Part shown: positions 32,465 to 62,379 of the stretch, one piece after another | Position numbering within the stretch: the stretch's first letter is position 1 | Layout of the letters: every line of letters starts with the position of its first letter | IMG/VR virus record: IMGVR_UViG_3300025678_000005 | Reading direction: 5' to 3' (one strand) | DNA length: 64,000 nucleotides | Origin: a virus | Taxonomy: Duplodnaviria > Caudoviricetes | The notes under the pieces: model-generated | What the model was told of the DNA's origin: nothing | The model's database searches: none | What the model saw: only the letters and a program-made list of their open reading frames with translations | Translations under genes and position numbers: made by a program

Positions 32465-32496
32465 TTTGAATATCTCAAAACTATTTTGTATCTTTG
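32465..32496 (+). promoter_or_regulatory. Bacteroidota promoter for tnpB
   Basis: -33 TTTG (32465) and -7 TATCTTTG (32489) 20 nt apart; ATG follows 4 nt later, so the mRNA is near-leaderless. Confidence 0.7.
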
Positions 32497-32500
32497 TGGT

Positions 32501-36949: not shown

Positions 36950-37549
36950 ATGTTAGAAGCAGAATATAAATACAATTTAGAAAAATTGTATGATCCAGAA
37001 TATATTAGTGATTATTACGCTAATAATAATGTACAAAGTAAAAGTTCTTTATTAAGAGAATATTTAGCAAATTCTAAAAAATCTGATGTTCCAATATCAG
37101 AACGAATTAAAAGTTTTATAACCTTTAAGGAAAAATCTAAACCAATAACAATCAGTAATAAAGTAAAAGAAGCTATGGATTTTTTTATACAGAAAGGACT
37201 TACTAAGGAACAGGCAGCTGGAATATTGGGTAATCTTCAGGTAGAATCGAATTTAAATACTACAGCATGGGGTGATAATAATACATCTTATGGTATAGCG
37301 CAATGAAATAAAGACAGGTTGGATGGTTTACATGCATTTTCAAAAATTAGAAATAAACCTACACACGATTTTCAAACACAACTTGAATATATTTGGCACG
37401 AATTAAATACTACAGAAAGAGCAGCACTTGATGAATTACTTAAGACTAATAATCCAGTAGATGCTGCTCGTGTATTTGCTAAAAAATTTGAAAGAATGAA
37501 AGAGTATAATCCAAAACGTGAAATATACGCTAAAATGTTTAACGCCTAG
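36950..37549 (+). CDS. phage tail lysozyme-like peptidoglycan hydrolase (199 aa, TGA=Trp at 37304)
   Basis: AAGILGNL..ES, YGIAQ[TGA]NKDR = GIAQW, QLE.IW.EL, AA..F...FER; the two track ORFs are in one frame. Confidence 0.85.
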
Positions 37550-40500
37550 CCATAGGATTTGGTACTAATTCCATAAAGTTCAAATTTGATCTAATAAAAC
37601 TTTCAACTGATCCGTTTCCAGAAAAAACATCCTTAACAGAATCTATAGTATCTGATAAAGTACTTATAAATACTGGAGTTGTTTGTATATCTCCTAATAG
37701 AGAAAATGGATTAAATTCCTTTGTCGATCTCATTAAGATTTTACAAGCCATTCTTTCGTATTGATCCATCTGACTATAGTTTGTTTTTCCAGTAATTAAA
37801 TCTTTATTTTTAAATATTAAAATACCAAGTAATATATTAATTAACATTATAATTAAATCATGTAACATTAATTTCGCATTATTAAGTCTATGTGGTTCTA
37901 TTTCTTTTAATGATTTTCCAGTAGCAAGCTCCCTTATTGTTATACCAAAAGAATACATTAATCCTTCAAAAGGATCTCCAACTCATTCTCAATCTGGTGA
38001 ATAAGCATCTCCAGGTTTTAATTCTGTTTCTGGTATTTCAAGTCTATATTCTTGTCCATTTTCATCTGTTTCATACTTTACATAATATAGTACTTTTTTA
38101 CCATTTACCATTTTAAACTTCTGTTGCATATGGCCTCTTTTTGTTTTTGTAGGTTTACCAAAATAATATCTTATCTTGGCTGGCCAGAAAGTCATAAATT
38201 GACCAAAAAATATACCAAGTGGTAAATGCTTTATAAGAGGACTTCTATCATAGTCATAATATCCATACGCCAATTCTGTAAAAGTTTTTATACTTTCTCT
38301 TTCAAGATTCATATATGGTTCTGAAATTAGATCTTCTTCTTTATATGTTTTATCGTTTTTAAAAATAGCTTGTTTATTAAAATAATCAATATAAGTTTTG
38401 TATAATGCTCTTTGTGTATTATATTTTTTATCAGTTGGATGATCTTTCATTCCATATTTTTTTCTCATTTGAAAATAATATGAAAATCTTTCATCCTTTG
38501 TTACATCATAAACTAAATTACCATCTTTATCTAAAGAATATGCTTGGTAAACACCATCTTTTATTAATTTTGAAAGAAATAATGCTAATCTATTGATATA
38601 GTCTGGAGCTGTATTACTCCAATACATAAAATCACTAATGAAATTTAATCCTCTTCTATCTATCTTTGTTTTATCAACTATCTGATTCATATCTCTATTT
38701 GCAATTCTAAAATAATTATTTAACTCATTAACTAAAGCATAATCCTTTTTTGATAATAATAATTTATAGGCCTGTGTTAAATATCTTCCAGAAAAACTAT
38801 CATCACCATATACTTTTGATCAGGCATAAGAAGTATTCTTTATAGTACCAACTACTAATTCTTTAATTGCCATGGCTGGTCTTATAGCTAAAACCATAAA
38901 ACTTACTCCTTTTTGCAATAGCCTTATATAGCTAAATAAATCTTCATATTCTTTTCCTTTTATTGGAGACACATTATATATTGATACTTTAATCTGTTCC
39001 ATTGTAGTGTTTAATAATTTTTCAACTTCTTCAATATGACCAGTTTGATACCCATAAAATCGCAAATTTTGCATTGCTGCATTAATATATGGAAGTACTT
39101 CATTAAAATATTTTTCTTTAATAGATTCAAATATATATTTTAATAAAATAGTATCTAAGTTAATTTCTCAATGTCCAACACTATATCTTGTTAATAGATA
39201 ATCCCTAAATTCTTTATCTTCCTGACTTTTGAATCTATTGTAAATTTTCTTTAGGCCATTTATAGCATTCATTGAACCAATATATTGTAATTCTTTTTCT
39301 GCTTCTTCAGGAGTTTCTTGTTTTATATCCAATATATTTAATGCATTTTCTTTAATATTTCCAACCATTTTTCTAAATCCATCTGTAGTCAAAGTTTTTA
39401 ATTCACTTAAATTCATTCTTGGAATAAGAGGAATTTTTAATAAATTTTCAATTTCTCCAGAAGCAAGCATTTGTTTTAGTTCTTCTGATTTTTCAAACTT
39501 TTCAAATGTATCTAATTCTTGATTTGAGCCATCTCTATATAAATAAAACAGATGTATATATTGTTTTAAATATTTTCTTTGTTCTGGAGTTAAAGCTGTT
39601 TCTTTTGATCATGGATTTTTTAACTTAAATTCTGAATCCAATTTATTACCGTCATGTTCATAAAATGGACTGTAGAATCTATCTGCATCACCAATAAACG
39701 TTTTTTCAAGCCAGGGTCTTCCCATTTCTTTATACATTGCATTTGTTAAATTAATAACTTTATTTTTTTCTTTTAAATAAATACTACTAATTTTATCCTG
39801 AGTAAGATTTCTAACATCGTATATTTGGTTCAAATATTCTGATTGAACAGCATCAGTTGTTGCAAGTTTCATTCCCTGGAACATTCCAACTGTAGGAATT
39901 TTTATATTTGTATCTTTTACTTCTCCAAATAATCAGCTTTTTAACATGTGTGTAAAATCACCTTTTGTCATACCATACTCATTTACGCCAGTTTCAAACT
40001 CTCCATTGATTCCTATAAAATGAGATATTCCTCCACTTACTAATGCATATAGATAAACAATAGGATCGCTAAAATCAGTAATTTTAGTTGGATCTATTTT
40101 ATTCAAATGGCCATATGTTTCTAAAAGTTTATCACTTAGTTGAGTTAATAATTTTATTTTTTCATTATTTGTTGATGGATTGTCAAATTGCTCCATACTA
40201 AAATAAGCATTTAATGCATCATTATTTATAGTTCTTAATGCATCTAATATTTCTTGATATAATATTTCCATATAATCTGCTACTTTAATTTTTTTATTAG
40301 CAAAATTATTTTCTATATTTATATCATCCTTTATTTCTTTTAGAAGCAAATCGAAATTATAAAAGGCATTTTCCAAATTATTAGATCAGTCTGGTGTTCC
40401 AGAGGAAATATCCAATACTTTTATATTTCCAAGTTTATATCCATATAACACATCTGGCATAGCATTTAATACAGTCAAAGTTTTTAAAATTTCTATATGT

Positions 40501-42398
40501 GAACTTGTAGCGTTTCATATTTTTGGATCTCTATTTAAATCTGAATCTCTATAAAATTTACCAAGTACTTTAGTTCCAAGACCAAGATTGTTAATTTGTC
40601 TTAAATTATTAATTGTTAATGTTACAACTTCTACCTGTAATGTCTTATTATTGCGAAAAACAAGTGTGCCATTTGCTAATAAAGCAGGTCTATTTGTAAT
40701 TAATTCTCAATCTCCACTTAAGTATTTTTGAAAAGTAGTATTTAGACCATCATAAATAAGTCCTTTTATATTTAATTTTCCAGTTTTTTTTCCTTTATTT
40801 ATTTCTTTAATTATATCCTGTACAGCTGTATCTTTTTTAGCATTTAATAATTCTACGTATTCGGCAACTCTTTTTCTAAATCTTTCTACGCCTTCTTCGG
40901 TGTTGGGCTCTTCAATATATTCACCAGTTAATCTATTCAAAAGTTTAATTGTTTGTCTTCCTTCGGCCCTATGTTTAGCTTTTGTTATTAAAAATTCTAT
41001 ATCTTCTATTTTACGTTTTGTCCTGAAATTATAAGTAGGAAACATTGCAGATAATGTTTTTTGTATATTACTTATTATTACAGTACTTTCTTCTGGGTTA
41101 TCTTTAACTTTTACAGGAATTAATTTTCTAAGCGTTTGTGTGACAATTCCATTTTCATCAAGGCCAGATGGTTTATATGCATAAGAAGAACTTCTTTCAT
41201 TTACCTCTCCAATATAAAATTTATCTGCCATTATCAATCCATCTCTATTTACTGGAAAAATTGCTGGTAATATGTATAATGATATAAGTTGTGGATTAAT
41301 TTCTGGTGGCAGCAAATCCTCTAGTAATCTCCTTGATATACCAAGTTTATAGTCAGTTCTTAGAATTTTTGCTGAGTCTCAATCTGTAATATTATTTCTA
41401 GAAACTCTTACATCATAAATGCTGGGAATTCCATCACTGTTTATAGATAAGTAAGAGATTGGAGATGATATTCCTGTTGCATTTTCTATAGGTAATTGTC
41501 TATTTAACCAAACATCTGCTTCAAATTTTTCAGTAGAATTTAAAACAGTTTGTTTATATCATTTTTGTATCTGTTCTTTTATATTTTGTGATATATTTAC
41601 TTTTTCTTTTTCTGTAAAACTAAAGTCATGTTTTATTAATTTATTATAATTCTCTACAGTTTTTATAATTTTTTCTATAGAATTATCAATAGAAAATTTA
41701 GGATTCTTTTTTATATAATTTTGTAAAATATCATTAACTATTATTTGTAAAGACACCATTATATTTGAAGTCTTTAATTCCAGGTCTACTTCTTCTGTTG
41801 CCCTTCTAAGCGCTTCTTCTGGATCAGACTCATTTAAATCCTTATATTTTGTATTAAGTAAATCATTTATAGCTTCTTTCTTATAGTTTTCATCATTAAA
41901 AACAGGAGCAAGTAATTTTGGATTTTCACCATCTATTATATGTTCCATTTTTAAAAATTGACTATCAATAATAAAGTTCTTACTATATGGTACATTATTT
42001 TTCTTAATTTCTTCTCATACTCTATCCTGTATAGAATTTTCTTTAATATCAAATTTCAAGACAGTATGTTTTTTATTTTCCAATCATTCTTTAAACTGTT
42101 TAATATCTTCTTCTGATCCCAATATATATTTATTAAATGGTGTATATGAAATACCTTCATTAATATCATGTTCTTTTGGATCTAAATTAGGAAATTTGCT
42201 GTCTATAAAATCAATATATTGTTCAAGTGTTCCAATACCTTTTATTTTTTCATCGTATATAGGTAATATATAATCATTTATAACATTTCCAGGTATTGAA
42301 TGTATATAATGAGCCTTTATAAAATCAGAAAGTTCTTTATCAGATTCATAAGTAAATTCATTATTTCCATCTTTTAAAAAATATTTGCATTTATCCAT
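37539..42398 (-). CDS. giant virion (ejection/cargo) protein A, about 1619 aa, TGA=Trp
   Basis: Nine track ORFs share one frame; breaks checked are TGA; gaps checked translate cleanly (e.g. SPD-W-E-W-VGDPFEG). Confidence 0.8.
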
Positions 42399-42399
42399 A

Positions 42400-45300
42400 T
42401 TAGTAATTACATTTTTGTTCTAATTTTTTTTCATCTATTAGTTTTTGTATAATGTCTGCTACAGTAAACATTTCATAAGAACTATTAAAATCTATTAATG
42501 ATTCTTCTCCATCAATCAATTTTGAACCAAAATTGGTTAATACATCATAAATAGAAGTTTTCATTAATCCATTTACATCTTCTCAGTCCAGGTTCTCTTC
42601 AAGGTTTAACATATCAGAAATTGTATCTTTAATTGTAGTGTTAAAACCGTCATCTGAAAATACTCCATCACTTTTAATATTTTTATTAAAAGTTAATGTA
42701 AATAATTTAATAAAGCTTTCTTCTAAAGCTTCGGCATTAATCATATTGCCAGCAACTTCTTTGAATATTGGATGATATTGTACAGAATTAATGATTCTAT
42801 AATACATATCAGAATTTCTAGCTTTCATTGTAGCCAAAATAACATGGAGTAGTTCATGGAGAGGGTCTGTTATTCTAGCTTTATCAAGATTAATGTATAT
42901 TTCATCAAAAGTAGTAAAAGAAGATGCTTGATATACCTTTGGATTATTAAATCTTTCAAGATCGCTATTCTTTATTAAGTTTATTTTTATATTAAATTTT
43001 TCAGATAAATAATTACTAAAGTTTACAAGAAACTCATAACTACTAGATTTAACATTTATTTTAGTTTCTTCTTTTTCAATATTATTTTTATATTTAGATA
43101 TAAATTCATAAGTATTTATTGCCCATTTTGGAGTAAAAATTCCTTTAATATTTAAATCTGTATATTCATCTAATATAACAGTTTCTCCTTTTACATATCT
43201 AAATTCACCATTTCCATTTGGTATTTTAGTATACGAATATTTTGTTGCCACTAAAGCATTTTTTAAAATTTTTTCTACAACTAGAACATTCTTACCTAAA
43301 GAAATAAAACTTCCAGGAATTATTTTATATAGTTCATTTGAGCGCAACATTTTAATAAAATTCTCTTTAGACATTTCAACAAAATTAGTATTTAAAGAAT
43401 CTTTTTTATAATAATTATTTGTTGCTATAGCATATAATTTGTCTGGTATATTTTCTCATTTATATCTATCCTGCATTAATTTTTTATATTCCTGTGTAAT
43501 ATCTTTATATCCTTTTTCTGCTATATTAGATTCAATTGGATTAACGTTTGCTGGTAAAATAAATATGAAATTATTTGGATTTTTATATACTTTTACTTCT
43601 ACATAAGATTTACTTTGTACTTGTGGTTCTCTAAATACTTCTATTCTTGATTTTTGAATGCTTAAATTAGCAAAAGACTCATTAAGTCTTTTTGTAAATA
43701 GAATATAATTATGTAATGAATTTCTATCTATATTAAAATATCTAAATGTGTTATCACTCATTTTTACAACTGTCTTTATGTAAAAATGTTTTATACCATT
43801 TATCAAATTATATCCAGAACCAATAACTTTATATAGCAATTTAGTTTCTGGATTATACAATATGTCATCAGACAATATTGTAGAATAGTTATTTAAGTCT
43901 GATACATTAAATGTTAAATTATTTAACCTATCATAATCTTTTTCTAAAATAGATTGTACAGACTTATTATTTTTTAGAATATTGTTTATATAATAAGATA
44001 TATTAATTAAATCATCATTGTTTATAATATTCTGGTTTGTATTTCTTGGTATTTCTGTTCCAACAATATTATATTGACTGGTAACTCCAAGCTTGTAACC
44101 TTCGTCGTCTTTATATATATATAAGAATTTATTTGTAACAAACTCATTTCCAATAATTAATCCTATGAATTTAGAATTTCCTATTGATATAAGTGCACGT
44201 TCTCCAATTGTTGGAGTCTTATAATTCATATCTATATTTTCTTCTAATAATTCTAAATTTGGTACTGGTAACTTTATATTCTTGATTTCATCTATTCTTA
44301 AGGATTTATTATTATCTAATACAATTATAGAACCTCTAATTTCTTTAATTTTATAATCTTTATGATCCAAAGTTACAAGAATATTATTATTTTTTAACAA
44401 ATTCAATATATGTTTATATGAAACAGATTTGAAGTGTTTATGTAATGAAATTGGTATTTTTTCAGATTTAGTATATGAATAATTATTATATATTTCATCT
44501 GTATATACCATAGCTTCTACTGAATTACTATTTGTATTAATAGATAATTTATTGTCTATAGTATAAATATATTCTGAAGCAATTCTATTACGTAAAAATA
44601 AATTTCCTGTTTGTGTATTTTGTCCCAATGTTCTTATAATATATTTTCCATCAGAATCAATATAACTATCATAGAATAATTCGTATCAATCAGTTGCATT
44701 TGGATTTGAAATTTTATCAGGATTTGGTATTAATACAAGATCTCCCTGCTTTAAATCAAGTATATTTATTCTTGATTTTGGTAAATGTTTTGAAAGACGT
44801 TCTTCATTATCTATATATTTAAATTTATTTCAAGTATCGTGTAAAGACAGCCTTTCAGTATTAATACTTCTATCCTCATTTATTGATTTAACTACACTGC
44901 GATAATAAGCAGTATAGATTATTTTTTTTAAATCATTGGTTTTTTCTTCATCCTTTGTTTTAATAATTGATTCCAAATACTTATCGGCCATTAATTTATC
45001 TTCCTCTTTTTCTGAATTTACAAGCTCTCTAAAATTTATTTCTCCGAAAGCATTATATAACGCCAATTCAACCAATGCAATGATATTGTTATCTGTACTG
45101 TTCATATAATTTAAATTGAAAAATATATGACCTTTATAGAATGAAGTTGGGACGTTCTCTTCTCCAAAACCAGCAATAACATTATTTGTTTTTCAATCAA
45201 CACCGATATTTAAAAGTCGTAATAATCCAGATTCTCTTGGAGATAATTGTTTTACAAGTTCACCTGGACTATATACTCCTACAGTGTTTTCATTTATATC

Positions 45301-45492
45301 ATTTAAATTTAAGTCTTGTATATTATCAAAATCTAATAACTTATTTTTTAATTCATTATAAGCAGCTAAATTAGAACTGTCTATATTTTTTTTCAATTCA
45401 AAAATTAAATCTTCTAAAGAGTTAATTTCATTCTGTGTAGAAAACAATTCTACTTGCTTTCCTTCTAGATTAACCGTATACTTGCAATCCAT
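42400..45492 (-). CDS. giant virion protein B with zincin HExxH domain, about 1030 aa, TGA=Trp
   Basis: Four track ORFs in one frame; PLHELLH...EALEE; ends EQKCNY*. Confidence 0.8.
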
Positions 45493-48400
45493 TATTTACA
45501 TTCTTTACTAATTACTAATTTTTTATTTTTAATTTGCTGAACAATTTCATCAGCTAAATTTTGTGATTGTTTATTAACTGTTATTTCATGTGAAACTTCA
45601 TAAGGAAAAGTATAATATCTATTCATTTGTAATGTTTCATTTTCAGTTACATTTAATTTTTTTGGTTTATTTTTATCATAAATATCAACATCACCAAAAA
45701 CATATAATAGAAATCCTTTTAAATTATTATTATTTTCAGATAAATCTTTTACTAAAATATCAACATCTTCGTGTGTTATAGAAGATTCAAAATTAAGAAA
45801 TTTTCTTGAAATAGAATTTGGATCATCAGCATCTTTATAAAATAATTCTGTAGCTCTATTTCCACCAAATCTTCCTTCATTTATAATTAAATTATATGCA
45901 GTTAATAAATCTATTAACTTAATTCCAGCATTTAATTTAGAATCACCATCTTGTACAGTATTTATATTTAAAATATAATCTGTATTTATATATTCTCCAG
46001 AAGCTGGATCTCATTCTTTAGAAAATCCCCTACCAATCATCTCACTTATACCTGCCTCGAGATCTTCCAATTCATCATAATTAGATTCATCTAAATAATA
46101 AGATATTTTTTTATTTAAGTTATAATTTAAATATGATGTCTTTACAAATCTCTTTAAAAATCCATTATTAGCGTGTTTTTTCTTTTCAAAAGGTATTATA
46201 TATTCTTCCATTATATATTTAAATTTTGCTAATTCATATGGACTATTTAAAGAAAAATACCTTATTGGAGAATTTTCTAAATCTTTTTTAGTAAAAGTAT
46301 CTACAGAAATTTCATCTTGACTGTCTTTTAATATTCTAATATTATCTATACCCAAATAATTCATTAATGCTATCAAATCAAATTTATAATCCAGAGTATT
46401 AAAAAATTTATAAATAACTCAATTATCATAATAATCGTTTATTTTATTCAGTATTCCTGAACTGTATGTAACTGGATTATTCTGCACTCCATTAAGTATT
46501 ATATGTTTGGTTATTTTATAATATAATTCGTTTTGCGGATAAATATCCAATATTTTTTCAATTATCTTTTTACTGTTATTTATTGAATTAAAATAATGTT
46601 TATTTGTTTTTGAGGTAATAACAGTATCAACAGTATGAAAAGATTTAAACATGCTATTAAAATGCTTTAAAGAAGATAGTACATCTAATATATTAAATGT
46701 AGATTTTATAAGATTGTAATAATCAATAGCTATTTTTCTATAATTATCATCATTAAAAAATAAATCCAAATCTAATTCTTTTTCTACTATATTAATATTT
46801 TTAGCTTTGTCATATATTTCTTCAATAAGCACTTCATTTAATCAAGGTTTATCTTTCTTAATAGTTTCTAAATCACTTAAATCATTAAAATATTTTCTTT
46901 TCAACATTTTTCTTTGATTGACCAACGAAAATCTTAAATTATTCAATAATTCATAAAGACTTTCTTCATTAGCTTTAGATCCTTGATTAACACTTAAAAA
47001 AGAGCCAAGAGTAATTAATTCTTGAGAGTCCATAAATATATTGAAGAAATTGACAAAGAAATTACTTCTATATTCATTTATAGGAAGAGCTTTTATATTC
47101 TTGTCAATAGAAGCCCTGATCATATTGATTCTGGAAACGGGTCTACCATTTGTAATAAAAATGTTGTTTTCTGTTTTTCTTTTTAATTCCATAGCCTCTG
47201 GAGATGTCATAAACTTTGTAACTTCATCTGGCGAAACTCCCAACATGAGTAAATAAATATGCATTCCAGCAAATTCAATTCCAGCATTTATTTTTGCTAA
47301 TAAAAGCTCTTTTGCATTATCAGTAGCAAGTGTTAAAATGGCCGATATATAAAAAGCTATATCATTATCTAATGGAAATTTTTCCATAGATGATATTATA
47401 TAATCAATATATTCTGAATTACTCATATATTCAGAAAGTATTGTATCTTTAGAAATGCTTTCTAAAGAAGTCCTAATATTTTGTACTAAAATTTCATCTA
47501 GTTTGTCTTGAATGTTTTTATAATTATTTAATCCAGCAATTTTATTAAAGCAATATTCTTTTCCATTAATTACATAATGTTTGAAGAAATATTTACTACT
47601 ATTTACATCTATATTATCAACATTCATATAATAGTTTCCAAAATATTTTACAAGTGCAAAATAATTTTTTAATCCTACAGCTGCAATACCAATAACAGCT
47701 TTACCTACTGTGTTTTGTTCTTGTTGCAAGCCCATAGTATATCCATTATAAACATCAAGATTATATGGTGAGTCAGAATAATTCTTTTTTATTTCTCCAT
47801 AAACTCCAGATGTTACTGGTATATTAGATGCAACTTGTGTTGTAGGACTTTCAAGAACACCTATCATTTTGTTTACAATATAGTTTTTAAATCCATTCTC
47901 GTTATAATAAGATTCGTGCCTATTAATAGCTTTTAATAAATAATCATCTTCTGAATATATATATTTATATTCATTTTTATTTAATTCATTTGTAATTGCT
48001 ATAAATTTATCCAGAAAACTGCTATCGTTTATTCCATTACTTTCTAAAAAAGAATTTATATTAAATACATCATTAGAAAAATTTATACCATTGTCATCAG
48101 TAATTAAAACATCTTTGTATTTTGTTAGATTTTTTTCATTTAATAAAATATATTTTCTGTTTTTTGGAAGTGGAATATTAATTGATTCATCAAATTTAGT
48201 TGTATCAAAATATGGAGACCATGCTTCAAATTGACCATTTTTAAATGAGTATCCCATTGTGTATACTTTATCAATGTCAAGATCTGATCCCTGTAGAAAT
48301 AGTTGTCAGATAGATACATATATATCATTTGCTGATCCAGGAATAAATCCTACCGTTTCCATAGACATAACTGATTGTAGTGCTTGAGCTGGAATTCTAG

Positions 48401-51400
48401 CTACAACAGATTTTAAAGATTGCTTAAAACTTTTATATTTTATATTTGCCAGCCTTTTTGAATATTTAAATGTTTCTGTTTTTTGTTTTGTTTTAAGAAA
48501 TTCTTCATATAAATCAATTACATTCTTTTTAGTTATTTGTCCAGTATTATACTTATCTATAATATCCTTTTTAAATTCTTTATAATTTTTTATTTTTTTT
48601 CTAAAAAAGCTTTCTAATTCTTGATTATTTACAGAATTTGCTATTGTTGTTAATAATGTCAAATAATCATCATCCACCAAATCTAATAATTTATCTACGG
48701 TATTATATCCTTTATCCTTTGTATAAATATAATTCAAATTATTATGGCTTTCTAAAAAGCTATCAATACCTTCTTTAATATATAAAATTTCATTGCCTTT
48801 AGTATCTAAGAACACTTTATAGGAAGCTGGTAATTTATACATTTTATGTCCAAAAGAATCTATTCTATAATTACCATCATCACTTATATAAATTTGAATT
48901 TCTTCTGCTATTGGAGAATACTTTGCAATTTCTGCATCCAAAGAAGTATTATTATTTTCAGCATCTCTTTTTGCAAGTTCCATTACCGTTTTTAAATATA
49001 ATTTATTTTTATATTCAATATAATTAAAATCTTCTAAAGAGACATAATAGTCTTCTCCGTTTACACCAACTAAAACTAAATCTGCTGGAACTGGTAATAA
49101 TGGATGAAGATATTTCTTTGGCAATAAAAAGTCTGAGATGTTTATTTTATTTAGATTGGTATCTTTCTTAATTCCAAATGTGTCATATTCACCATAAGAT
49201 CTAATATTTTCTGGTGCATAATATTTATAATCTGTAATACTATTAGTATTAATATAATTATTTTCAAATTTTCCTGTAAAATCATCAAAGCCATCTACGG
49301 TTTTAAAAATAGTATTAAAATAATTATCATTCGTTTCTTGATAAGATATATAGTTCTTATTATATGATAATAACTCAAAAGTTCTTTGTATTCATTTATC
49401 AACATATGGCAAAATATTTACACTCCCTGTAATATTTTGAATATATTTAACAAAATCATTATACATTTTGCTTGTTTTAAAAGTATTATCATTTAAAAGT
49501 CTCCATTTGAATTCTATTGCATCACAATCTCAAATACTCCTTTGAATTCCATTTTCTACGAATGTAACATCAGATGGTTTTAAATCTCTTGGCTGATTAT
49601 ATATCTTATTTATAATAATATCAGAATTATTTAAAGATTTTATTAAACCTTTAATTTGAAAATAATCATTTATTTCATTTAATCTAATAGGAGTATTGGC
49701 TGGTATTAAATTACCGTTTAATGTTATATCTATATTTAATGAAATTACATCCAGGGGTCTTATACTTGAAATATTTATATTTGTAGGCTGTAAACTTGGA
49801 AGAGTAGATAATACATAATCTATCTTTGCATTATTTATATCATGTAAATTATCTAATGTATTAACTTGTGGTTTTACAGATAATTCATCATATATACGAA
49901 TTAAATCAGTATTTAAATATTTATTTCCATCTCTATCTTCATATAACTGTACAAATCCTTGTGAAGGTCTTAACACATAACCAGCTCCTGGAAATTTTCT
50001 TCTAACAAATTCTGCATTAACCTCAGAAATTAAAAAGCTTATAAATTGTTTATATATTGTTTTATTATCAAACGGTATAATATGCTCAAAATCATTTTCT
50101 AATGCATTAACAATTGTCCTAGCATTATTAATTTGGGATGAATTATTCAATCTTTTTATAAATAATTTTGTAATAATTTCAAAATCCTTATCACTATTTA
50201 ATCTAATATTAAATTTTTCAAGTCCACGTTCGGTAACTGTAGAAATAGCATCATATACAGCATCTGACAGTTCGGGAACTAGATTCATTTCAGATAATGC
50301 TGATATAACTTGTGTAATTTCATTTACTTCAGAATCTTCTACTGTATGATAAGGATCTAGCTGTGTTCCAAAAAACGAAGTATCGAATATAAAATAATTT
50401 AAGGGTTTATCAGAAGAAAACACATCTTTTACTGTATTTATATTTGTGGCACCATATTTTATTGCGCTTTTTGGAACCAGCATTGTAATTAAACTTTCTT
50501 TAAGAGTGTTATTTTTATTATAAATAGCATGTTTACTTACAATTGAGGCCACTAAATTAATAGAAGATTCATCATATTTAATTTGATTGTTTTCCATAGT
50601 TGCAGAATATTCTCCACCAAATGCTTTCCATAAATCAAATAGATTATTGATTTCTACTTGTTTTTCATCTCCACCTTCAAAATATATAGTATAAATATTA
50701 TCCTTTAAAAGTTTTATATTTAAAAATTTTTGCATCTTACCATTGTGTCATAAATATAGATTTGGTACAATAGCTTGTAAATCTATTGGACTATAAGAAT
50801 CAGAATCGCCAAGATCTTTAAAACTAAATAGATCAAAATAACCATCTTTTCATAGATACTCACTATTTAATTTTTTCATAATATTATATAGTTCTACATC
50901 TTTTCTATTACTATTTCTTATATCATTATTACTTATTGCAAATGTTGCAAATTTTAGTAATCCAGAAAAAGATTCACTTATTATTTGGGCAATTGGTTTT
51001 TGTGAACTCTGTAAATTGTATCCTGGTAGTGAAACTTTAAGTAATTCATTAAATATTGGATTTACCAAAGCTCCCCCATTATAAACTTCTATTTTAGTTT
51101 GATCACCAGTATAGTTAAATACTGTAGTTTCTGGATCAGACATAACAGCTATTTTATGTTTTTGTAAAATTCCTTCTGGACTTTTCCCATATATACTCAT
51201 TGATGCACCAAAAATGTTCATTCTTTTGGTCATTGTTGTTGTACGTTTATTGTTTTCTCTGGTTAATACAGATTCTATACTATCTCATTTATTATTTACT
51301 GGGGTAAACAGTTTTTCATATGGATGTATGTATGAATCTTTTGTTGAAATATTTAAGTACTGAGATGTTACAAGATTTTTTGTTCACAAATATGTTTTAA

Positions 51401-54257
51401 CAATATCTGTTATATTGTTTTCATCTTTTAAAACTATTTCATCATCATTAGTTATTTTTATATTAGGAAAAGCATTTGTTATTGATGCTATTTTTTCTTT
51501 TTTGTCTTTCTTTTGAAAAACAATATAATTTAAAGAAATTTTTTCTGGAATATATTTAAATAATTCTTTTTCTTGATATTCAACTCATTTATCAAATAAC
51601 TTCTTATCATTAAATATTTGTACATACGATTTCAAAAGTTGATTAAATTTAATAACATCTTTTCCGTTTTCATTTTTATAAAAAGAATAATGAGTTTCTT
51701 CAGAAATTTCTACATGTTCAGAAGAATGTATTTTATCTGATATTGCTTCTAAAATTTCTTCTTTAGAATTAAGCTTATTAAATTGTTCCAGATATTCTTC
51801 AATTTTATTTATCTTAGAAATGGATGTTTTTGGTTTAGTTTTAAAGAAATCATTATCTAATATATAAAAATCATTATATATATTAGATATTAATGTATTA
51901 TAATAATCTGATTGATAAACCCTCATCACTTCTTTCAATTCTTCTAAAGAAATGCTATTTAAAGAACGTAATCCAAATGGAGTATTTATATTTTTTGCTG
52001 TATTGAAAACAGTACCATATATAGTAGACTTATCTGAATAAGTTACTGGAATATTGATAAATTCGTTGTCCTTTAATCTGGCTTCCAAAAAATATTTTGT
52101 AAAAGACAACATGAATATCTCATTTGCATTTAAATCACGTAAATCTTTTGAACCATATTTACCAATAACCTCTAATAGTACTTCATTTCTTTTATAAAAT
52201 CCAGGATTTTTTGAGAATATATTATCAGTTTTATCAATAATATTATTAAATAAAGAAGACATATTTGCAACAACCATAGTTGGAACAGACTCTCCAGTAG
52301 ATTTTTTTACCTGTGTGACTGTATCAAATTTTATATCTCTCTTAGATATTTTAAACAAGTCTCTTAGATGTAAAATATCATCTACATCATTAGCAAAATA
52401 TGTTGCCACTCTGGTTGGAATATTATCTGTAGATTGATATTTTATATTGCTTGTTAAATATTTAATAGCATTTTTAAAATTATTACTATTAAAATCTACA
52501 TTTTTTGATTCAAGTATTTTTCTATATTCTTCTATCGTTGTTTGTGATAAAGAAAGACCTCCTTTATTCTGATCTGTTAACAATTTAATAAAATCATCAA
52601 AATTATTAACAGTATAATTTGAATTTATAATGTTATTTGTTTGTGCATTATCAAGATTTACAAATAAATTCTCTACTTCCTTAGATATGGTGAAATCCAA
52701 ATCTAAAACGTCCACAGTTTTGCTATCATCATAAACAGATGCTTGATGATAAACATTCTTTACAGTATTTCTTAAATGATTAATTAAAGCCAATTCGGGA
52801 TTTAAAATAAAATCTCCAGTTTCTTTGTTTGCATCTCTTCAAGCAAGAATAGAATTTCTTAATCCTTTAGGAGCATATAAAAATTGATATATACTTTCCA
52901 ATACACTTTTTCTTGCCAATATGTTATTGCTTTTTTCTACTCCTTGGTCTATAACCGTTCTTAATATTTTTTTAAAAGAAAGTACATCTTTATCATATAA
53001 ATCATATAATTCTGAAATAGTATGTAATTCATTATTACCATTTATTTCAATATTAAATTTAATATCATTATTTAATTCATTTAAAATAGTTCCAGCGGCA
53101 TCTAAATTATTTTTACCAATAGACAATCCATACTCATTTTTTACTCAAATTGTACCTTTTGAAGTTTTTCTTTGTTCATAAAATGGTATAGTATAAGCAA
53201 TTAATTTTATTAAAGAAGTTCTGTTTTCTTCAACACTATTTGCATTTTCATTATCCAATAAACTTTTCTTACCTCATCTTATATTAAGTGAATATTTTGG
53301 TAAACCATTTGTAGGAAGATTAAATGTTCCAGAACTATTTATATTTACTTTTACTTTATCCGAATGATTATTAAGTAAAAAACTGTCAAAATTGGTTAAA
53401 AGTAATGATTTTATATATGCTTGTGCTATTGTATATCTATTTCCACTAATTATTCTAAAATCTCCTTCTACAGATTGCATATTAATATCCATCTGTTCTT
53501 TTATAAATTCTATAACTTGTGCATAAATAGAATTTTTTCCATTACCAAACAGAGCATCATTTAAAGATAAATCATACCCTTCAACATTTGATATTCTACT
53601 TAAAATATATAAATTTGAATCTTTAATCTTTATAGGATTTGGATGATTATTCAAATAATATCTATAAATATAATCCCATAACTCATTTTTATATAGTGCA
53701 ATATTTTTATTTAATGCAGCATCAGTAGTAACAAATCCTTCATATGGATAATCCTTATTGTTTGTATCTAATGAATTAATAAATATTACTTTAAATAAAC
53801 CTATATTAATTAAACTATTTAAATAATTCATATAAGAATCATTATTATATACTAATTTCATTATTGATGAAAAATCATAAATTCTATTTTCATCAATAAC
53901 TGGATTTGTATCATAAACAAAACTTTTAACATAATTTGATTTAACTTTATTTACTATATCAAATACCAAATCATCAAGATTTTGATCAAAATTCTCAAAC
54001 TCTGATGTATATAATTTAAGAGTATTAGTTAGATTTTCAGATAAACTAAAAAAATCATATGAATTTATAGCTTTATTTTCATTAGATATTTCAATTATTA
54101 AATTGCTAATACCATCTGATAATTGTGTTCATTTATTATTTTCATTATCCAAATTTATTTTCTCTAATAATAAATCTTGATTAATAGATTCATTAAGAAA
54201 TGTTTTTATTTTTTTAGAATTTAAAACACTCTTAAAATTCTGTATACATTTTGCCAT
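45492..54257 (-). CDS. virion-packaged DNA-dependent RNA polymerase (crAss-type), about 2921 aa, TGA=Trp
   Basis: Nine track ORFs in one frame; ARIPAQ..QS and YVSI[W]QLFLQGSDLDIDK, with the DxDxD motif at 48270-48284 lying between track ORFs. Confidence 0.88.
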
Positions 54258-54261
54258 ATGC

Positions 54262-57200
54262 TTATTTTATACTACAATTTATATTTGTATTGTCTTCATC
54301 TATTGCGCCAAAATCATCCAAATAAGATGATAGTGGATAAAATTTTCCATTTTTTTCTATATAACTATTAGGATTATATATTACATTTTGAATATAATCA
54401 GATAAAATTACATCGTTTTCATTACCAGTAAATAAATCTTTATCTAATTCAATATTGTTATAATTTCTAATTAAGAAATTTCTAACTGCCTGATTCATAG
54501 TTGACAATAATTGTTTTTCTTTACCAACAGGAAATTTGGAAACATCTAATTTAATAGTAACTTTTAATTTTAAATTTCCATCTTCAAGATTTAGTACAGC
54601 TTCATTTGGTATTATATTATTTGTTGTAATATTATTTTTTATATTAGTTTCTTTTTTTTCACTTAATAAATCACTCATACGTATCAATAATCTATTTGGT
54701 TCTATTGCAACATTGATATTATAATATTTATATTCATCCAATGGTAATGTTCCATAAGACTCTCCTTCTCCTCCAACTCTTATTGATTCTATAGTTGGAT
54801 TGTAATATATTGGTTTTTTATATTGCTCTAGAAATTTATCAAATTCATATATTGGATTTGTAATTACATCAGATAAATAAAATAATATATTACCAATTCT
54901 AACTGTTTCATATTTTTCTATTACAGTTTGTCCTTTGATTATATTTTTTCTTGTTTCTTCTGAAGAGAATCACTTCTTAAAATCATCTTCATCATTAGGA
55001 TCATAATTATAAGAAACTAAACTTTCAACTATTTTTGTTAATGTATCTAAACTAAAGAAATTTCTTGTTTTTCCAAAATAATTGTTTTCTAGATTTATAA
55101 GAACATCTTTCATTAGATTTTCTTTACCAGAAAGTTTTAAATATTTAAAATAATTGAATAATAATTCTCATGATCTATATTTACTAATTAAGTGGTGTAC
55201 TTTTATATCTTTTTTCTCTTCATCCAATTTCTTTGAATTAATTATAGATGTAAATTCTTTTCAAAACTCCATAGGGCTTCTTGAATTAGAATTTAACATA
55301 ATAAGCCTATTACATGCAGTATTTGTATCATCGTATGAAACAATAATATATGGCCTGAACCTGTATTGTTCTAATAATTTTTTATCAGTAATTTTATATC
55401 CTGTATAGGTTTCAAGCTCTTTTTGTATTGCATTTAAATCACCCCAAAAAACTCTTACTTTATTATCAAGTATTGTTGCTCCAGGAAAAACTTTTGAAAT
55501 ATCATTCAGATTAACTGGTTTTATTTTATTTGTCTGGTTTTCACTTTTTGGCAATATTGGATTTTTATAAATTGTAACGGCCTGCTTGTTTATAGAAACT
55601 TCTCCTTCTTCATCGACTCTTGAATATATTTCGCTTAATTTTTGAATGTTAATGGCCCTAGAAACATTGGTATTATTTAAATCTGGCAAAACAGCCAAAG
55701 TCATAAATATTTTTTTATTATTAACATTAATATATGTTCCTATAGCATATATATCAGTTTTTATAGAGTTATTATTTACAAGTTTTCCATAAGAATATAT
55801 ATTATCAACAGAAGATGCTATTTTTTTTATAACTCAATCTGACTCTACTTGCACTGTATCATTAAATAATTTTTGTTTGCCATATAATTTATTAAATAAA
55901 ATATGATTTTTAAATCTAATATATTCATGTATAATATCGCTCAATTTTAAATTTTCAGAACTTATTTCCTCTAAAGCAAATAAATCTGTATCTGTAAATT
56001 TAACATTATTTTCCTGTTCTAATGTAGTTTTTAAATTACTTCATGAAATAGTATTTTTTTCACCAGACTCATTAATTTTAAAATTTAAAAATTTACTTAA
56101 TGGACTTGGACTTGATATATTATGCACATTTATTCCAAGATTATTAAAGAAGCTGTATCCTAAAATATTGTCTGGATCAGGAATTTTTTCCTGTTCTTCA
56201 TTTTCTTCTGTGTCTATTGTATCAATAACTGGAATTTCTTCTATAAAATCAACTGGCTCTACGTTAATATTACTTACAGGTTCTTCAACGGTTTCTACTT
56301 TTTCCTCTTTTAAATCCATTAAATTTATTTTATCAATTCTATTTTGTAAAGACTTGTTTATTGCATCGGCATTAATTGTAACTGGAACAGATTTGGCACG
56401 CAAAATATTTTTTATATTAATTGATGTATTAATTTTTGCTAAGGTTCCTTCTTTTGCCCTGGTCAATAAAGTGTACAGTTCTCTAGCTTCAATATAAATA
56501 TGAGAATTCTTAATATTTAAATCTATTATTACTTGATCAAATTCTCTTCCTAAAACATCTCTACCATATACTTTTATTTCTTTATCATTAAATACATTCT
56601 TTAATTTTTCTCTTAAAGATTCAGATAATGTCCCATCTTGTGTTATTACAGCTATTTCTTTATTTGGATCAAGTTTTTTTAAATCTTCTTCTGTAATTGT
56701 ATTTACAATTAAAGTTCCACTTAAATATTGATTTGTATCATTATATAATAATTCTACATCTTTTTGAATTGGTTTTTGTTCAAATGATGCCGCACGAACA
56801 TTTCTTACAAAATTTTCAAGTGTAACAACATTTTCATTTTGTAATGTATTTCTTGCTCTTACAGGATTTCGCATTTTAATATTAGATGCAGAAAATATAT
56901 TATCTGTACTAAATAAATTAGTTCCAATTTGTATTCCACTTTGTAATGGATCCCCCATTAAAACAATGTACACATTATTATTTGCACCAAGTTTATTTAA
57001 AATTTGTCATTCTATTGTATTAATTTTACTTAATTCATCTCCTATAATAATTTCTTTTGCAGTATCAGAAGGTTTTAATAGAAAATCATCAAAGAAAGCT
57101 TGCTTCAAATATACCGCACCAACACCTTCGCCAATTGCAAAGTATTTGGTATTTATTTCTTTATTTGCTTCAGCAAGTTTTTTCTCATCAGTTAAATCAT

Positions 57201-60200
57201 ATTTTTCAATTATAGAATATAAATTTTGTAATTCATTTAATCCATTAGGATTCAAGTACTTATTAATAATATTAGAAACTGTCATATTATTAATGGTTAT
57301 ATCTAGAGTTCCCTTTATATCCTTTGATAATGTAACCAAGGTGTCTTCTGTAGGAGCTATAGCAGTTATATTAATAGTATTATCCTTTCCAAATTTTTCT
57401 AATATTGTACGTAATGTATAATTTGCAATTACAGAGCTTTTTCCTGTCCCACTTGTTCCATGTATAGAAACTATATTTTCTATATTAAATGCTTCTAAAC
57501 TGTTTATTCTATCAATTAAATCATTTTGAATATAGGACTCTGATAATCCTTTTTCTGGATTTTCTTGTAAAAAAGTTGTAATATGTTTATAAATCTGTTT
57601 ATTTTTAAAATATCCAACAACAAAGCGTAAAGACATTTGTTGTGAGAATAGCGGAGCCTTTCTATTTCCAGGTAAAGATACTTCTTTTTCTAATAATGTT
57701 TTATAATCATTATAAAATTCTTTACTATCATAACTTAAAATAGTATGTACTCAATTATATCAGTCTAATAGTTCAAATTTATCAAAATCAGCTGTTAAAT
57801 TAGACTCTCTAGACAATATAATATCTTTAGCGCTAAACTCTTTTAAAAAGTTTCCAAATATTTCATTTAATTTAGTATTTAAATCTCCTGGTAATTCGTG
57901 AAATCTTTTATAAAAAGTATGCTCTATTTCAATTGCTTTTAATTCATCATCATCTATTTCATCAAAACGATCTAAATCATCTATAGTAAACAATGTTTTA
58001 TTATTAAATTTCAGATTTAATAAACTAAGTTTATTATCTGGATCTAAATATTGTTTATTTATATTTTTGAAAAAAGATTCTCTAATTCTATTATCGTTTT
58101 CTATTATAGAAACAGCATTATTTCTTGCTAAATTTTCAAAATAGGCTAATTTTGAATCTATAAAATTAATGTCCTTTAAAATTGTATATGCTGTTTGAGA
58201 ATTGATAGTATCATAAGTTTCCTTTAAACCCTGTTTCTTTAAAGCTCTATTTAACATTTCATTGTATCCATATAAATTGGACGGGCCAATTTCTGTAGAT
58301 GTCATAGCAGCTGTTATAGCTCTTACAACATTTAAAACATATCTGGCCTTCATAATTTGTTCTAATTGTACATCACTTCTAATGAAATCAGATTTAGTAT
58401 CAACATTCTTGTCAAAGAAATTAATATTATCTTTTAATATATCAAAAAATGTTACAGGATCTGCTCATCCATAAATAGTTACCTGAAAGTTTTTTAGTGT
58501 TTCAAGTAATGTATTTATTTTCCTATTTTTCTTTGCATATTCAAGTACTGGAGATAATCTATCATATATATCCTTATAATGTTTATAAGCTACTTCATCT
58601 TCACTTAGTTCCGCATCATCCAAAAGTTCTGAAATTGTTTTATATGCCTTTTCGGACTCTTCTATAAAGGCTTCTTCTGCTGGTAAATTTTTAGAAACCA
58701 AATCTTTTCCATATTGTATTAACAAATTTACTTTTGGTGTAATTTCATCTTCTGTTTGAATGTCTATTTGACTTAATAAACTTGCAACATATAATGCAGA
58801 TTGTTTTTCTACAGCATCATCTGGTAAATTATTAACATTATTAATTAGAGTATTATTATATTTATTAATAAGTTCTCTAATAACTTCCTTATTCATTGTT
58901 CATTCAGGAAGACCAATTTTATTTAATATGTCTTCAATTATTATCTTTTCATCATCAGAAAATTGTTCTATTGTTGGTTTAACATTTTGAAAATTATTTA
59001 TATATTCAATAATTTTATTGTCTATTTTAGAACTAAAAAGATCATTTACAGATTTATTTAATGTTTCTTGTAATCTGTTCTGTGTGTTAATCAGAGTTTC
59101 TTTAATATCATCATTATTTATAGAGCCATCTGGATTTGTTATTACATATAATCCAGCATTTGATAAGTCTTGTAATGATATTTCTTCTCCATTATTTAAT
59201 TTATTAAGAAGAGTATTTACTTCTTCAAGTTTTTGTTTAGATGCAACTAGATTAGAAAATTCATTTTTTAATGTATTTTTTTCTTCATTATTTAATTGTA
59301 ATGTTAATTGTTTTTCTCCATCATTATATTTTCCTGTTTCTACTAATTCAATAAAAGAATCTATATCTAAATTTTTTATTGGTACTTGTTTGTTTATATT
59401 ATTATATAATTGATACATTGTCCACATTTTATCTGCTAATTTTGTAGCTTCTTCTTGGTTTTGTGTATTGTAAGTATCAGATATATATTTATATAGGTCT
59501 TGAACAATTACAGCTTTATTAGAATCTGTAGTATTCTTTTTAATAATATTATTATCAAGTAAGAATTTTCCAACATTAATAAATGTTTGAGAATCAAGAG
59601 AATATTTTGGATACCCGTTTTTTGTTAGAGTTGTATTAATATCATTCAATCTATCTAATAACTTAATATAATCAATTTGTCCATCTGTAGAATTTATAAA
59701 TGCATCCATAAAAGCACTTCTAACAGATGCAAAACCATCAGAATCATATTCTTTTATTGCTTTAGAAAATTTTTCATTCATATTGAGAAAAATATTAAAC
59801 ATTTTTCTCATCTTTTCTTTAAAATTCACTTCTGTATTTGACTTTAATTCATCAAATTCTATAAGATATTTATTTTTTTCTTCATCAGATAGATGATAAT
59901 AATCCTTATCATACACATTTTTTACATACTCATCTACAGACATATTTATAAATGGTTGATGTAATATTGGATTTAAAGTAAACAATGCTCAACTATGATA
60001 ATATTCAGAATTTTTACCAGATACCAAATCATTAAATTCCTGTCTTTTTTTATTTAATTCTTCTTCTACTAATTTTTTTGTGTTTAAATCGTTAGAATCC
60101 TTTAACGTTTCTTGTTGGTTCTTTAGATTTACAATTTGTAAACCTATTTCTTTTGCATCAGATAATAGAAAATTATCAACTCCAGACTTCTTAATATCAT

Positions 60201-62379
60201 TAATATAAATCTGATCCATTATGCTTTTTTTAATTAAATCTTCATCTGTATTTTTTAGATTTTCAGAATTAACAATACTATCAATTCATTTTACTCTTTG
60301 TTTTAATAAATCAGCATAAGTATCAGCATTAATTTCTACATTCGATTCACCAACATGTATTTCATTATCTCAAAGTTTTCCCTTCATATTATCTATTTCT
60401 GATAATATATCTGCTGTACGTCCAGTAGAAATCAAATCATATAAGTCAGCTTCCGTAGATAAAGATATTTTTTCTCTATTAACCATTGGTTCTATTATAG
60501 AACGTTGTAGCTCAAACAATGGCCCACCTATGGCACCACCTACAAAATTAGCCAAATAATTTTCAAAACCCGCCTTACTGAAAACAACATCAAATCCTCC
60601 AAAACTACCTTTTTTAGGAGTCAAACCTAGAGCACTCATAACATCTACAATACCTTTTGATGCATCTATTGCAGCTTGTTCTGTTACTTCTTCTACACCT
60701 TCTATAATACTTCTTTTTATTATATTTTCTGCAAATTCACTTTCTAGTATTGGCTCTGTTAATAATGTTTTTATTTTAGATTTAAATCCAGAAACAGCAG
60801 TTGCAAGTTTTGCTTTTCCAGCAACCTGATCTACATCAAACATATCAAAAGCTTCTTTAACTTTTCCATAAGAATCCTTTACAGCCTTTCTTACCACTGC
60901 TTTACTTTCATTCTCTGTATATCCAGTAGTTTTGTCAAGAAACCATGTTCCCATTTGATTATTAGCCATTAAAGCATATTGACCGCTAGCAGCAAGCAAT
61001 GATGTAAATCCAGCAGTTCTTCTATCATATCCACCAGCCAGAGCATCACTATATACATTAGAAGACTGTGTTAGAGCCATATATCCTAAAGATAAATTTT
61101 TTGCAAGTTTTGATCTTTGTACAGAACTTGCAGTATTTTCATATCCTTTCATAAATGCCCTTCTTGCTACATCTTCTACTTGTTCAACTGGGATTTTCCC
61201 AGCAAGTGCCCCTTCAACAGCATTTTTTTGAGCAAGCGTAGCCAGATTCTCCATATATTTTTTATCATTTACTTTATAAAAAAGTTTTGATAAAGATGCT
61301 GCTGCTCTTTGTTCATAAATTTGAGAAAATATAGAAGATACCATTGAACCAAGTTGCTCATAATTTCACATCCCCTGTTGTCCAAAATCAGACAGACTTG
61401 GAGAGCTTATTTTATTAACAGCACCTTCAATTTTATTCATTGCTTTTCACATAGGCGTTTCTATACCATCGGCTGGTTCACCAAGTAATAAACCTTCTAA
61501 AGATTTATAAAATGTGGGCAATGTAGCTGATAATCCCATAGCCATCTTTATACCACCATAAATAACATTAACATGTGGTATAAAAAATGGTAATGTCTCT
61601 ACTGCAAATTTCATTGTAGTACCAATAATAGATTTATCTTTTCCATCAGAATCAAAAAAATCTATCTTATTAATTGCAGTTCCTTCTTTTGTAAGAAGAT
61701 CTAAGGGATTAACAAGTTGCTTTCCATACATCTCCCTTTTTCCAAGTGTTTCAATATAGAAAGAGCCAGTTTCATCAGTTTTTCACTCACCTTTTCTATG
61801 TGCAACTGTTTTACCTATTACTGGATCAAAGCTTTCACCATCAGAATCTCATGTAGCATATACTAATGTTTTTCCAACTAAACTTTTAAAAAATCCTAAA
61901 TCGTTTGCTGATACATCCAATCATTTATTATTATCGTAATCTCATATTTTACCATTTTGTGCCAGCTCTCTATTTGATAGCTCATTTATGTCAACAGTAT
62001 TTACTCCAGTTAGGCTATAATAGTTTTGATATGGATTATAATCAGTCCTTATTGTTGGTCTTACATCTACTTTTTTACTCTTCATTGGAGCTCCATAATC
62101 ATTAGGATCATAAGTTAATAACTCTGCAAGAACTTTGTCTTCCGACATTTCTCTATACAAAGATACTGCAGAATCATAATATTTGTTAAAAGAATCTTCA
62201 TTAAAGATTCCTTTTTCATCGGAAAATATTTTTTTAACTTTATCCAATCTTTTGTACTCATCTTTACTTAAAAGCTGTGTATTTTCTATAGTCATATTTG
62301 ATTTAATAACATCAAACATGTCTGCATTTGGCTTCTGTAATATAGCTACAAATACATCATTTGGTTTTTTAATATCCAT
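54262..62379 (-). CDS. giant virion protein D with SF1 helicase domain, about 2705 aa, TGA=Trp
   Basis: Eleven track ORFs in one frame; GTSGTGKS, IGDE, MGDPLQ, GREFD.V and YT.LTRA; Gly/Ala-rich N-terminal region with EGVEEV.EQ. Confidence 0.82.

Follow-up and report, generated by a model that had tools for sequence, protein, structure and literature searches.

Conserved cysteines at the facing protein ends of the giant cargo block of a crAss-like phage suggest an end-to-end tether

We have analyzed a 64,000-nucleotide (nt) stretch of DNA, hereafter the window, from the IMG/VR virus record IMGVR_UViG_3300025678_000005 (Duplodnaviria; Caudoviricetes). Read with TGA as tryptophan (Trp; translation table 4), its minus strand encodes four contiguous giant open reading frames (ORFs) in the order D, RNAP (a predicted virion-type RNA polymerase), B and A, which form the RNAP-associated cargo block of a crAss-like phage whose late genes reassign TGA to Trp. 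We found that a cysteine (Cys) stands close to every protein end that faces another member of this block, that the two outer ends of the block are without one, and that these terminal Cys are as strongly conserved as catalytic residues in all four protein families. The rule suggests an undescribed end-to-end tether that would join the four proteins into a thread of ~1 MDa.

In the window, the four proteins together hold 10 Cys in 8275 residues (0.12%) versus 1.47% in the other window ORFs, a depletion with a Poisson P of 4e-39. Other late structural proteins of the genome mostly contain 0.3-2.4% Cys, and several are Cys-free. The ten Cys are D 2356 and 2702, RNAP 4, 1578, 2236 and 2920, B 3 and 1028, and A 4 and 1552. 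Six of them lie within four residues of the six facing termini, and neither outer end has one. The probability that 10 randomly placed Cys would fill all six four-residue terminal windows is 3.2e-15; at the background Cys frequency of the window, the same filling has P = 3.6e-8. An earlier note, made from the letters of this DNA, had reported this scarcity and placement, and had quoted the termini as MDIKKP...NINCSIK (D), MAKCIQ...ISKECK (RNAP), MDCKYTV...EQKCNY (B) and MDKCKYFL...PMARR (A); all of this proved exact. The note had also remarked that the termini resemble one another. The CKY likeness between the N-termini of B and A is indeed conserved, as part of a shared 11-residue motif, M-x-C-x-Y-x-(I/L)...G (hhalign probability 83%), whereas the RNAP family does not keep the KKL..C pattern that the C-termini have in common here.

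Terminal Cys were then tabulated across relatives, fused and split genes included, as the earlier note had advised, and they proved to be conserved only at ends that face another protein. For B, an exhaustive HMMER search was used, and the best 150 hits, which reach down to 21% identity and include zincin-only forms of 280-350 amino acids (aa), were surveyed. Among these 150, nearly all full-length matches carry an N-terminal Cys at position 3-5, and nearly all have a C-terminal Cys 0-3 residues from the end. An alignment of 18 B sequences (20-46% identity) has C3 and C1028 invariant together with the HExxH residues. Of 120 RNAP homologues, 114 have the N-terminal Cys, 117 the C-terminal Cys and 111 both, and C4 and C2920 are, like the catalytic Asp, invariant in 21 diverse homologues. 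The two end members of the block are one-sided: 27/29 A homologues have the N-terminal Cys and 0/29 a C-terminal one, with M1 and C4 invariant in the family alignment, and 53/57 D homologues have the C-terminal Cys and 0/57 an N-terminal one. The terminal Cys of D homologues is often the sole Cys in ~2,800 residues.

A search for related loci in IMG/VR returned 6 loci. Four apparent exceptions to the rule were traced; all are gene-calling or frameshift artefacts. A zincin gene called without its N-terminal Cys has its true GTG start (MDNC) overlapping the RNAP stop. An RNAP gene lacking the N-terminal Cys has its true ATG start (MRC) 23 codons (69 nt) upstream of the called one. A D gene had been shortened by three in-frame TGA codons, and under table 4 it encodes 2957 aa with one Cys and the end QTCKIS. 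The fourth, an RNAP gene in locus L003 that seemed split and Cys-free at the break, is a frameshift in a T6A4 run, because homology extends upstream of the second ATG across that run and goes on in the new frame. This last frameshift (L003:2840-2960; IMG/VR contig 3300002026_000193) may be a sequencing error or a programmed slip. The terminal-Cys rule corrected four gene calls.

The rule as tested expects a Cys within ~10 residues of each terminus facing another member of the block, and outer ends without one. Over 17 lineages (our own count), such a Cys is found at 72/72 facing ends and at 1/26 outer ends. Blocks of four proteins have three Cys pairs (the window and loci L004-L007, L010, L014, L015 and L021, TAG-recoded relatives among them), and locus L008, read with the standard code, has Cys at all six facing ends. 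Blocks of three proteins have two pairs. That of phage phi14:2 holds only 4 Cys in 5398 residues: one closes gp078, two stand at positions 3 and 2179 of the RNAP (2180 aa) and one at position 3 of gp076. In crAss001 the terminal Cys are C2339 of the 2341 residues of gp47, C5 and C2404 of the 2412 residues of gp50, and C5 of gp49; here gp50 and gp49 share one strand, and gp47, on the other, is convergent with gp50. Blocks of two proteins, as in crAssphage LMMB, crAss002, cr271_1, cr10_1 and FpV4, have a single pair. In LMMB, crAss002 and cr271_1, the first partner ends in a zincin domain and has Cys as its penultimate residue, and the second is an RNAP fusion that begins MSC, the partner genes being separated by 130-270 nt in LMMB and crAss002 and by ~80 nt in cr271_1. 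In cr10_1 the pair lies at -11 and +5. In FpV4, a 4287-aa fusion of RNAP and zincin (gp32) contains Cys4286 as its sole Cys, and the protein after it begins MAC. Cys pairing thus tracks protein ends, and neither genes nor a fixed order: there is one pair per junction whether domains are fused or split, and a border carries a Cys pair only where the polypeptide breaks.

The earlier note had framed the pattern as a chaining in gene order by which helicase, RNAP and peptidase are packaged or ejected one after another. The pairing of facing protein ends survives the wider comparison, but gene order is too narrow a description, given the opposite-strand gp47 of crAss001, and the fixed order fails, as the zincin protein precedes the RNAP protein in LMMB, crAss002 and cr271_1.

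Several observations were made at these loci in passing. Of the 26 outer ends, the single one that has a Cys close by is the C-terminus of A in the TAG-recoded locus L014 (L014:21428-26468), where an extra Cys stands 9 residues from the end and is followed by a 61-aa ORF that contains Cys. The annotated start of crAss002 gp33 (L017:12918-13190) is probably 32 codons too far upstream, because the conserved MSC start corresponds to Met33, and the gap between gp32 and gp33 contains a strong hairpin. Upstream of the cargo block, a smaller protein ends in (Y/F)-R-C-G-G in both LMMB (L016:662-1456) and crAss002 (L017:2393-4066), and the only Cys of an 861-aa protein of LMMB occupies the penultimate-but-one position (QSCR). 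Terminal Cys may also occur in other cargo proteins.

The junctions of the window are very tight (4 nt, a 1-nt overlap in which the RNAP stop TAA and the B start ATG share one base as TAATG, and 1 nt), and chance or a nucleotide-level feature of such junctions, for example translational coupling, could be thought to place the Cys codons there. The random-placement probability given above speaks against this, as does the use of both TGT and TGC as terminal Cys codons at these junctions. A gene-junction signal in the nucleotides is excluded, because the rule spans opposite strands and the 130-270 nt spacers. The comparative data refute this reading, to which we give essentially no weight, and translational coupling was dropped. 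That the terminal-Cys pattern is real and selected we regard as practically certain.

Structure prediction gave a candidate for how such ends might meet. A cognate pair encoded on one contig of the relative L007 was modeled, namely residues 815-1060 of the B homologue (P0005; 47% identical to window B) and residues 1-220 of the A homologue (P0281). The complex scored 0.75, and the best of 3 controls scored 0.00; the score mark is reached by 58 of 80 solved complexes and by 2 of 110 mismatched pairs, counts that are only rough because our own alignments were used. At least 65% of the contacts are shared between runs, and the partner has a predicted local distance difference test (pLDDT) value of at least 67. 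The most confident contacts (1053-9, 1054-8, 1055-7, 1056-6, 1057-5 and 1058-4) describe an antiparallel strand pair in which Cys1058 of the B homologue touches Cys4 of the A homologue. The last 10 residues of the B C-terminal domain, when folded alone, are a low-confidence coil. The model would thus bring the partner Cys together as a disulfide-linked hetero-oligomer needs. The earlier note had proposed that the termini are docking modules and had called for complex predictions of cognate versus non-cognate pairs; for the B-A pair of this relative, docking by strand complementation with Cys on Cys passed its controls.

Residues 907, 908 and 911 of the HExxH motif of the B homologue (904-911 region), beside the Cys-bearing tail, also belong to the modeled interface, and the B-A junction may cover the peptidase active site. 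This raises the alternative that the termini dock as modeled while the Cys pair serves as a metal site or regulatory ligand rather than a disulfide, and at B-A caps the zincin zinc in the way of the cysteine switch of matrix metalloproteinase pro-domains, keeping the peptidase latent until ejection. The zincin always lies ~215 residues before the C-terminal Cys junction (window, LMMB, crAss002 and FpV4), and at the C-termini of B a Glu or Gln frequently stands two positions ahead of the Cys (66% E), as such a site might have it. Yet the D-RNAP and RNAP-B junctions, neither of which lies at the end of a zincin domain, show the same pairing; a pair of thiols with no other ligand is poorly suited to holding a metal; D, RNAP and A have no further conserved His, Cys or Asp around the Cys; and the near-total loss of other Cys fits avoidance of wrong disulfides better. 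We consider a metal or switch role improbable, although it is the strongest of the rival readings.

The explanation that we favor, by a modest margin over doubt, is head-to-tail docking locked by disulfides, with the four proteins held as one thread. Its parts differ in strength: consecutive proteins quite probably touch end to end, a disulfide is the somewhat likelier form of the link, and packaging or ordered ejection is a tentative proposal for its purpose. In this scheme, the cargo would have been purged of Cys like other ejected phage proteins, with one kept within about five residues of each facing end. The C-terminal tail of one protein and the N-terminal strand of the next would first pair as short antiparallel beta-strands, setting two Cys side by side, and a disulfide would then form in the particle. 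The resulting D-RNAP-B-A thread, nearly linear and ~8,300 residues long, would be the functional equivalent of crAss-like polyprotein fusions. Packed at 1:1:1:1, it would be pulled through the narrow tail protein by protein, and the reducing host cytoplasm would cut it into parts. Because nearly all other Cys have been lost, selection against wrong disulfides is suggested.

Work on other phages makes such a thread plausible, because three of its ingredients have been described. Virions of crAss001 hold structural inter-subunit disulfides, and its capsid cargo proteins gp47, gp49 and gp50 must partly unfold to exit through the tail (PMC10172136). In N4-like phages, Cys is suppressed in ejected proteins, which was attributed to passage via the oxidizing periplasm (PMC11445570).

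Several considerations nevertheless weigh against this explanation. The complex model covers one of three junction types, in a relative, and yields a confidence score rather than a measurement. Disulfides normally do not form in the cytoplasm, where virions are assembled, and the gut is anoxic; the bond would need to form within the particle or once it has been released. In crAss001 gp50, in the D protein of L014 and in cr10_1, 9-11 residues separate the C-terminal Cys from the end. Orthology of window B and A with crAss001 gp49 or phi14:2 gp076 was not established by sequence search: neither hidden Markov models of the two families nor phmmer with every family member gave a significant hit among the proteins of crAss001, phi14:2, LMMB, crAss002 or FpV4, and pairwise BLASTP gave no match. 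Architecture and motifs are therefore the basis of our comparison with cultured phages.

The Cys counts, moreover, fit other pairings equally well. RNAP and B could each close N-to-C while D bonds A, homodimers could form at each end, or the partners of the ends could be other parts of the virion; the numbers balance here too, and the crAss001 virion has inter-subunit disulfides elsewhere (PMC10172136). Against these arrangements, the two-protein phages hold one C-terminal and one N-terminal Cys on different proteins, the zincin-A fusion phi14:2 gp076 lacks both of the Cys that would face each other, the model sets the C-terminal Cys of B on the N-terminal Cys of A, and the outer ends offer no Cys for anchoring to other parts. 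We regard them as decidedly unlikely.

Some crAss-like phages fuse their cargo proteins into a polyprotein that is proposed to be cleaved (bioRxiv 10.1101/2020.03.07.982082). The terminal motifs could then be processing remnants or signals, such as zincin cut sites of an ancestral polyprotein, or could mark acylation or another thiol modification, the proteins remaining unlinked; the closeness of the zincin active site to the modeled junction would suit this. Separate genes need no cleavage, however, and yet the Cys is invariant across lineages at ~20% identity, while the fused FpV4 gp32, with one Cys in 4287 aa, has none at its internal domain borders. A Cys at position 3-5 without a signal peptide does not fit a lipobox either. 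This reading seems to us more doubtful still than the other pairings. Two related candidates were rejected. A bacterial lipoprotein was set aside because the Cys at 3-5 comes straight after Met, without signal peptide and lipobox. For a split intein or trans-splicing, Pfam scans of the four proteins found no Hint or intein family at E <= 0.01, and there is no room for intein halves because the Cys lie 0-4 residues from the ends.

The purpose of the links is a separate matter. They might assemble or hold a transcription machine, RNAP with its subunits, in the particle or the host rather than serve packaging or threading, since the partners are annotated as RNAP-associated and in several lineages are fused to the catalytic subunit (bioRxiv 10.1101/2020.03.07.982082). 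A disulfide would not survive in the cytoplasm, the site of transcription, though, and links at the extreme chain ends make a string rather than a compact complex; the phi14:2 RNAP preprint also describes that enzyme as active alone. We judge a transcription machine to be an improbable purpose, a shade less credible than the metal or switch role. The disulfide thread can, on the other side, be pressed further. In its strongest form, a covalent thread of ~8,300 residues and ~1 MDa, closed by three terminal disulfides, would be loaded via one targeting end, possibly the conserved K-x-N-D-aromatic leader of D, and exit as a continuous chain, and cytoplasmic reduction would act as the timer that frees the helicase protein, RNAP and A and unmasks the zincin. 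This version is speculative, and we would not expect it to hold in full. Were it true, the most abundant human gut phages would have in it a modular stand-in for a polyprotein, gated by redox state.

The identities of the proteins bear on these proposals. D has a predicted superfamily 1 (SF1) helicase-like domain, with a Walker A motif (GTSGTGKS) at 1641 and a match to Pfam Viral_helicase1 (24.3 bits, cut-off 21; E 3.1e-5); a match to AAA_19 (23.3 bits) falls under its cut-off of 25.1. The N-terminus of D (window 62340-62379, minus strand) has a K-(P)-N-D-aromatic motif, MDIKKPNDVF in the window, which is kept in 53/58 D-family proteins down to ~24% identity and may be a targeting or leading signal at the free front end of the proposed chain.

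RNAP has the catalytic motif GSDLDIDK at 1990-1997. A profile of 21 family members matches PDB 6VR4 chain A, the phi14:2 RNAP, at E 4.6e-9, with GSDLDIDK aligned to GSDFDIDK (motif GSDxDIDK), and D1992, D1994 and D1996 are invariant in the 21 diverse homologues. The strict DFDxD string is not present in window RNAP, which has DLDID instead. The family profile alone found 6VR4; a phmmer search of PDB with the RNAP core returned nothing. By the profile alignment, window RNAP has the catalytic Asp triad of the crAss-like two-barrel virion RNA polymerase (phi14:2 gp66). It is probably packaged in the virion and injected, as suggested by its position in the late TGA-recoded operon and by proteomics of relatives (PMC10172136; phi14:2 annotation). 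All four giant proteins are probably packed in the head and injected; such proteins of relatives are capsid cargo and are probably injected as well.

In B, the zincin-like domain has HELLH at 879-883 and Glu 924/925, with H879, E880, H883, E924 and E925 invariant in the 18-sequence alignment. When 26 sequences of the domain are aligned, H80, E81, H84 and E126 prove invariant and E125 almost invariant (corresponding to H879, E880, H883, E925 and E924). Its predicted model (pLDDT 77) had no Foldseek match in PDB at E <= 0.001. With VIA-align, the best match was PPEP-2 (Z 4.7, root-mean-square deviation 4.1, 130 aligned), and anthrax lethal factor gave a weak Z of 4.3-4.6, both below the trust level. 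Pfam and PHROGs returned no family for RNAP, B, A or the 531-aa protein upstream of D.

The genome is circular (138.5 kb), and coordinates are collected in Table 1. Under table 11, the four cargo genes break into 33 fragments. The reading of TGA as Trp is sound because the sole tRNA has anticodon TCA, TGA is nearly confined to the minus-strand late genes (5-26 per large gene; 0-1 in plus-strand early/middle genes) and TGA sites align mostly with Trp in homologues. That tRNA, labeled SeC by ARAGORN, lies outside the window at genome C1:60526-60599. The two Cys-free proteins encoded upstream of D are probably further cargo or ejection proteins that do not belong to the Cys-linked chain; L022 encodes counterparts of 612 aa and 1562 aa that likewise lack Cys. 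Elsewhere in the window (32345-33634), a long ORF of 422 aa on the minus strand overlaps another of 382 aa on the plus strand.

Table 1. Positions of the cargo genes, their junctions and neighboring features (window coordinates unless stated otherwise)
Feature	Position	Strand	Description
Gene D	54262..62379	minus	2705 aa with TGA read as Trp; first member of the proposed chain
RNAP gene	45492..54257	minus	2921 aa; predicted giant virion-type RNA polymerase; Cys4 and Cys2920 are the terminal pair
Gene B	42400..45492	minus	1030 aa; zincin-like C-terminal domain; sole Cys are Cys3 and Cys1028
Gene A	37539..42398	minus	1619 aa; last member of the proposed chain; Cys4 at the N-terminus, C-terminus without nearby Cys
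Junction 1 (D/RNAP)	54246..54276	minus	D Cys2702 codon 54274-54276, stop 54262-54264; 4-nt spacer; RNAP start 54255-54257, Cys4 codon 54246-54248
Junction 2 (RNAP/B)	45484..45500	minus	RNAP Cys2920 codon 45498-45500; B Cys3 codon 45484-45486
Junction 3 (B/A)	42387..42411	minus	B Cys1028 codon 42409-42411, stop 42400-42402; 1-nt spacer; A start 42396-42398, Cys4 codon 42387-42389
531-aa gene, same operon, upstream of D	62382..63977	minus	0 Cys
1267-aa gene, next upstream across the circular join	genome C1:380-4183	minus	0 Cys
Early/middle genes	1-37549	plus	
Late genes	37539-63977	minus	

Full-text literature searches found no description of terminal Cys or a disulfide in crassvirus cargo. The crAss001 atlas (PMC10172136) and the phi14:2 RNAP preprint (bioRxiv 10.1101/2020.03.07.982082) do not mention these Cys, and one supplementary file of PMC10172136 does not mention gp47, gp49 or gp50. 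What is new here is the survey of four families, the resolved exceptions, the lineage tally and a controlled complex model with two Cys in contact. The finding bears on the way in which crAss-like phages keep and hand over ~1 MDa of protein, among it the polymerase with which infection begins; this cargo is not resolved in the crAss001 atlas (PMC10172136). A conserved Cys pair at every protein border provides a concrete hypothesis that is cheap to test. If the hypothesis is true, it would explain the free fusion and splitting of these genes in evolution, provide a new way to order protein ejection, and give a simple annotation rule for real starts, stops and stop-codon recoding in these giant genes.

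The closest known systems are the cargo blocks of crAss001 (gp47/gp50/gp49) and phi14:2 (GenBank gp078/gp077/gp076). Like the window proteins, these are giant late-operon products, and theirs are present in virions; phi14:2 gp077 is the crystallized virion RNAP (PDB 6VR4) and has the GSDxDIDK motif in common with window RNAP. In both blocks one partner has a zincin-type HExxH and the terminal-Cys rule holds, as in the window. The window differs in that its block counts four proteins with three junctions, its first protein carries an SF1 helicase-like domain, an extension of 800 aa precedes the zincin domain, TGA is read as Trp and the genome measures 138.5 kb; sequence similarity to cultured crAss-like phages is detectable for the RNAP core only. 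Polyprotein fusions (bioRxiv 10.1101/2020.03.07.982082; annotated LMMB fusions) place the same domains in one chain, as Cys links would achieve, but theirs are joined by peptide bonds and have internal borders without Cys, whereas the window genes are separate with a Cys pair at each border. The disulfides at the tail and portal vertex of crAss001 (PMC10172136) demonstrate that crassvirus particles do bond different proteins; those bonds stabilize fixed tail and capsid parts seen by cryo-electron microscopy, while the proposed ones would join mobile, unresolved cargo. N4-like phages (Schitoviridae: N4 gp50, DEV gp71-gp73; PMC11445570) likewise have a giant RNAP and co-ejected proteins that are nearly Cys-free, although these ejection proteins are described as wholly without Cys and the window keeps one invariant Cys per facing terminus. 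The RNAP families are unrelated, T7-like in N4 and two-barrel in the window phage. In two-chain translocated bacterial toxins, the chains are held by one disulfide that is reduced in the cytosol. The principle is alike, a single-disulfide tether passing through a narrow channel with release by reduction on arrival. The two systems share no homology, and where the toxin chains derive from one nicked precursor, the proposed phage thread would join several separate gene products in series.

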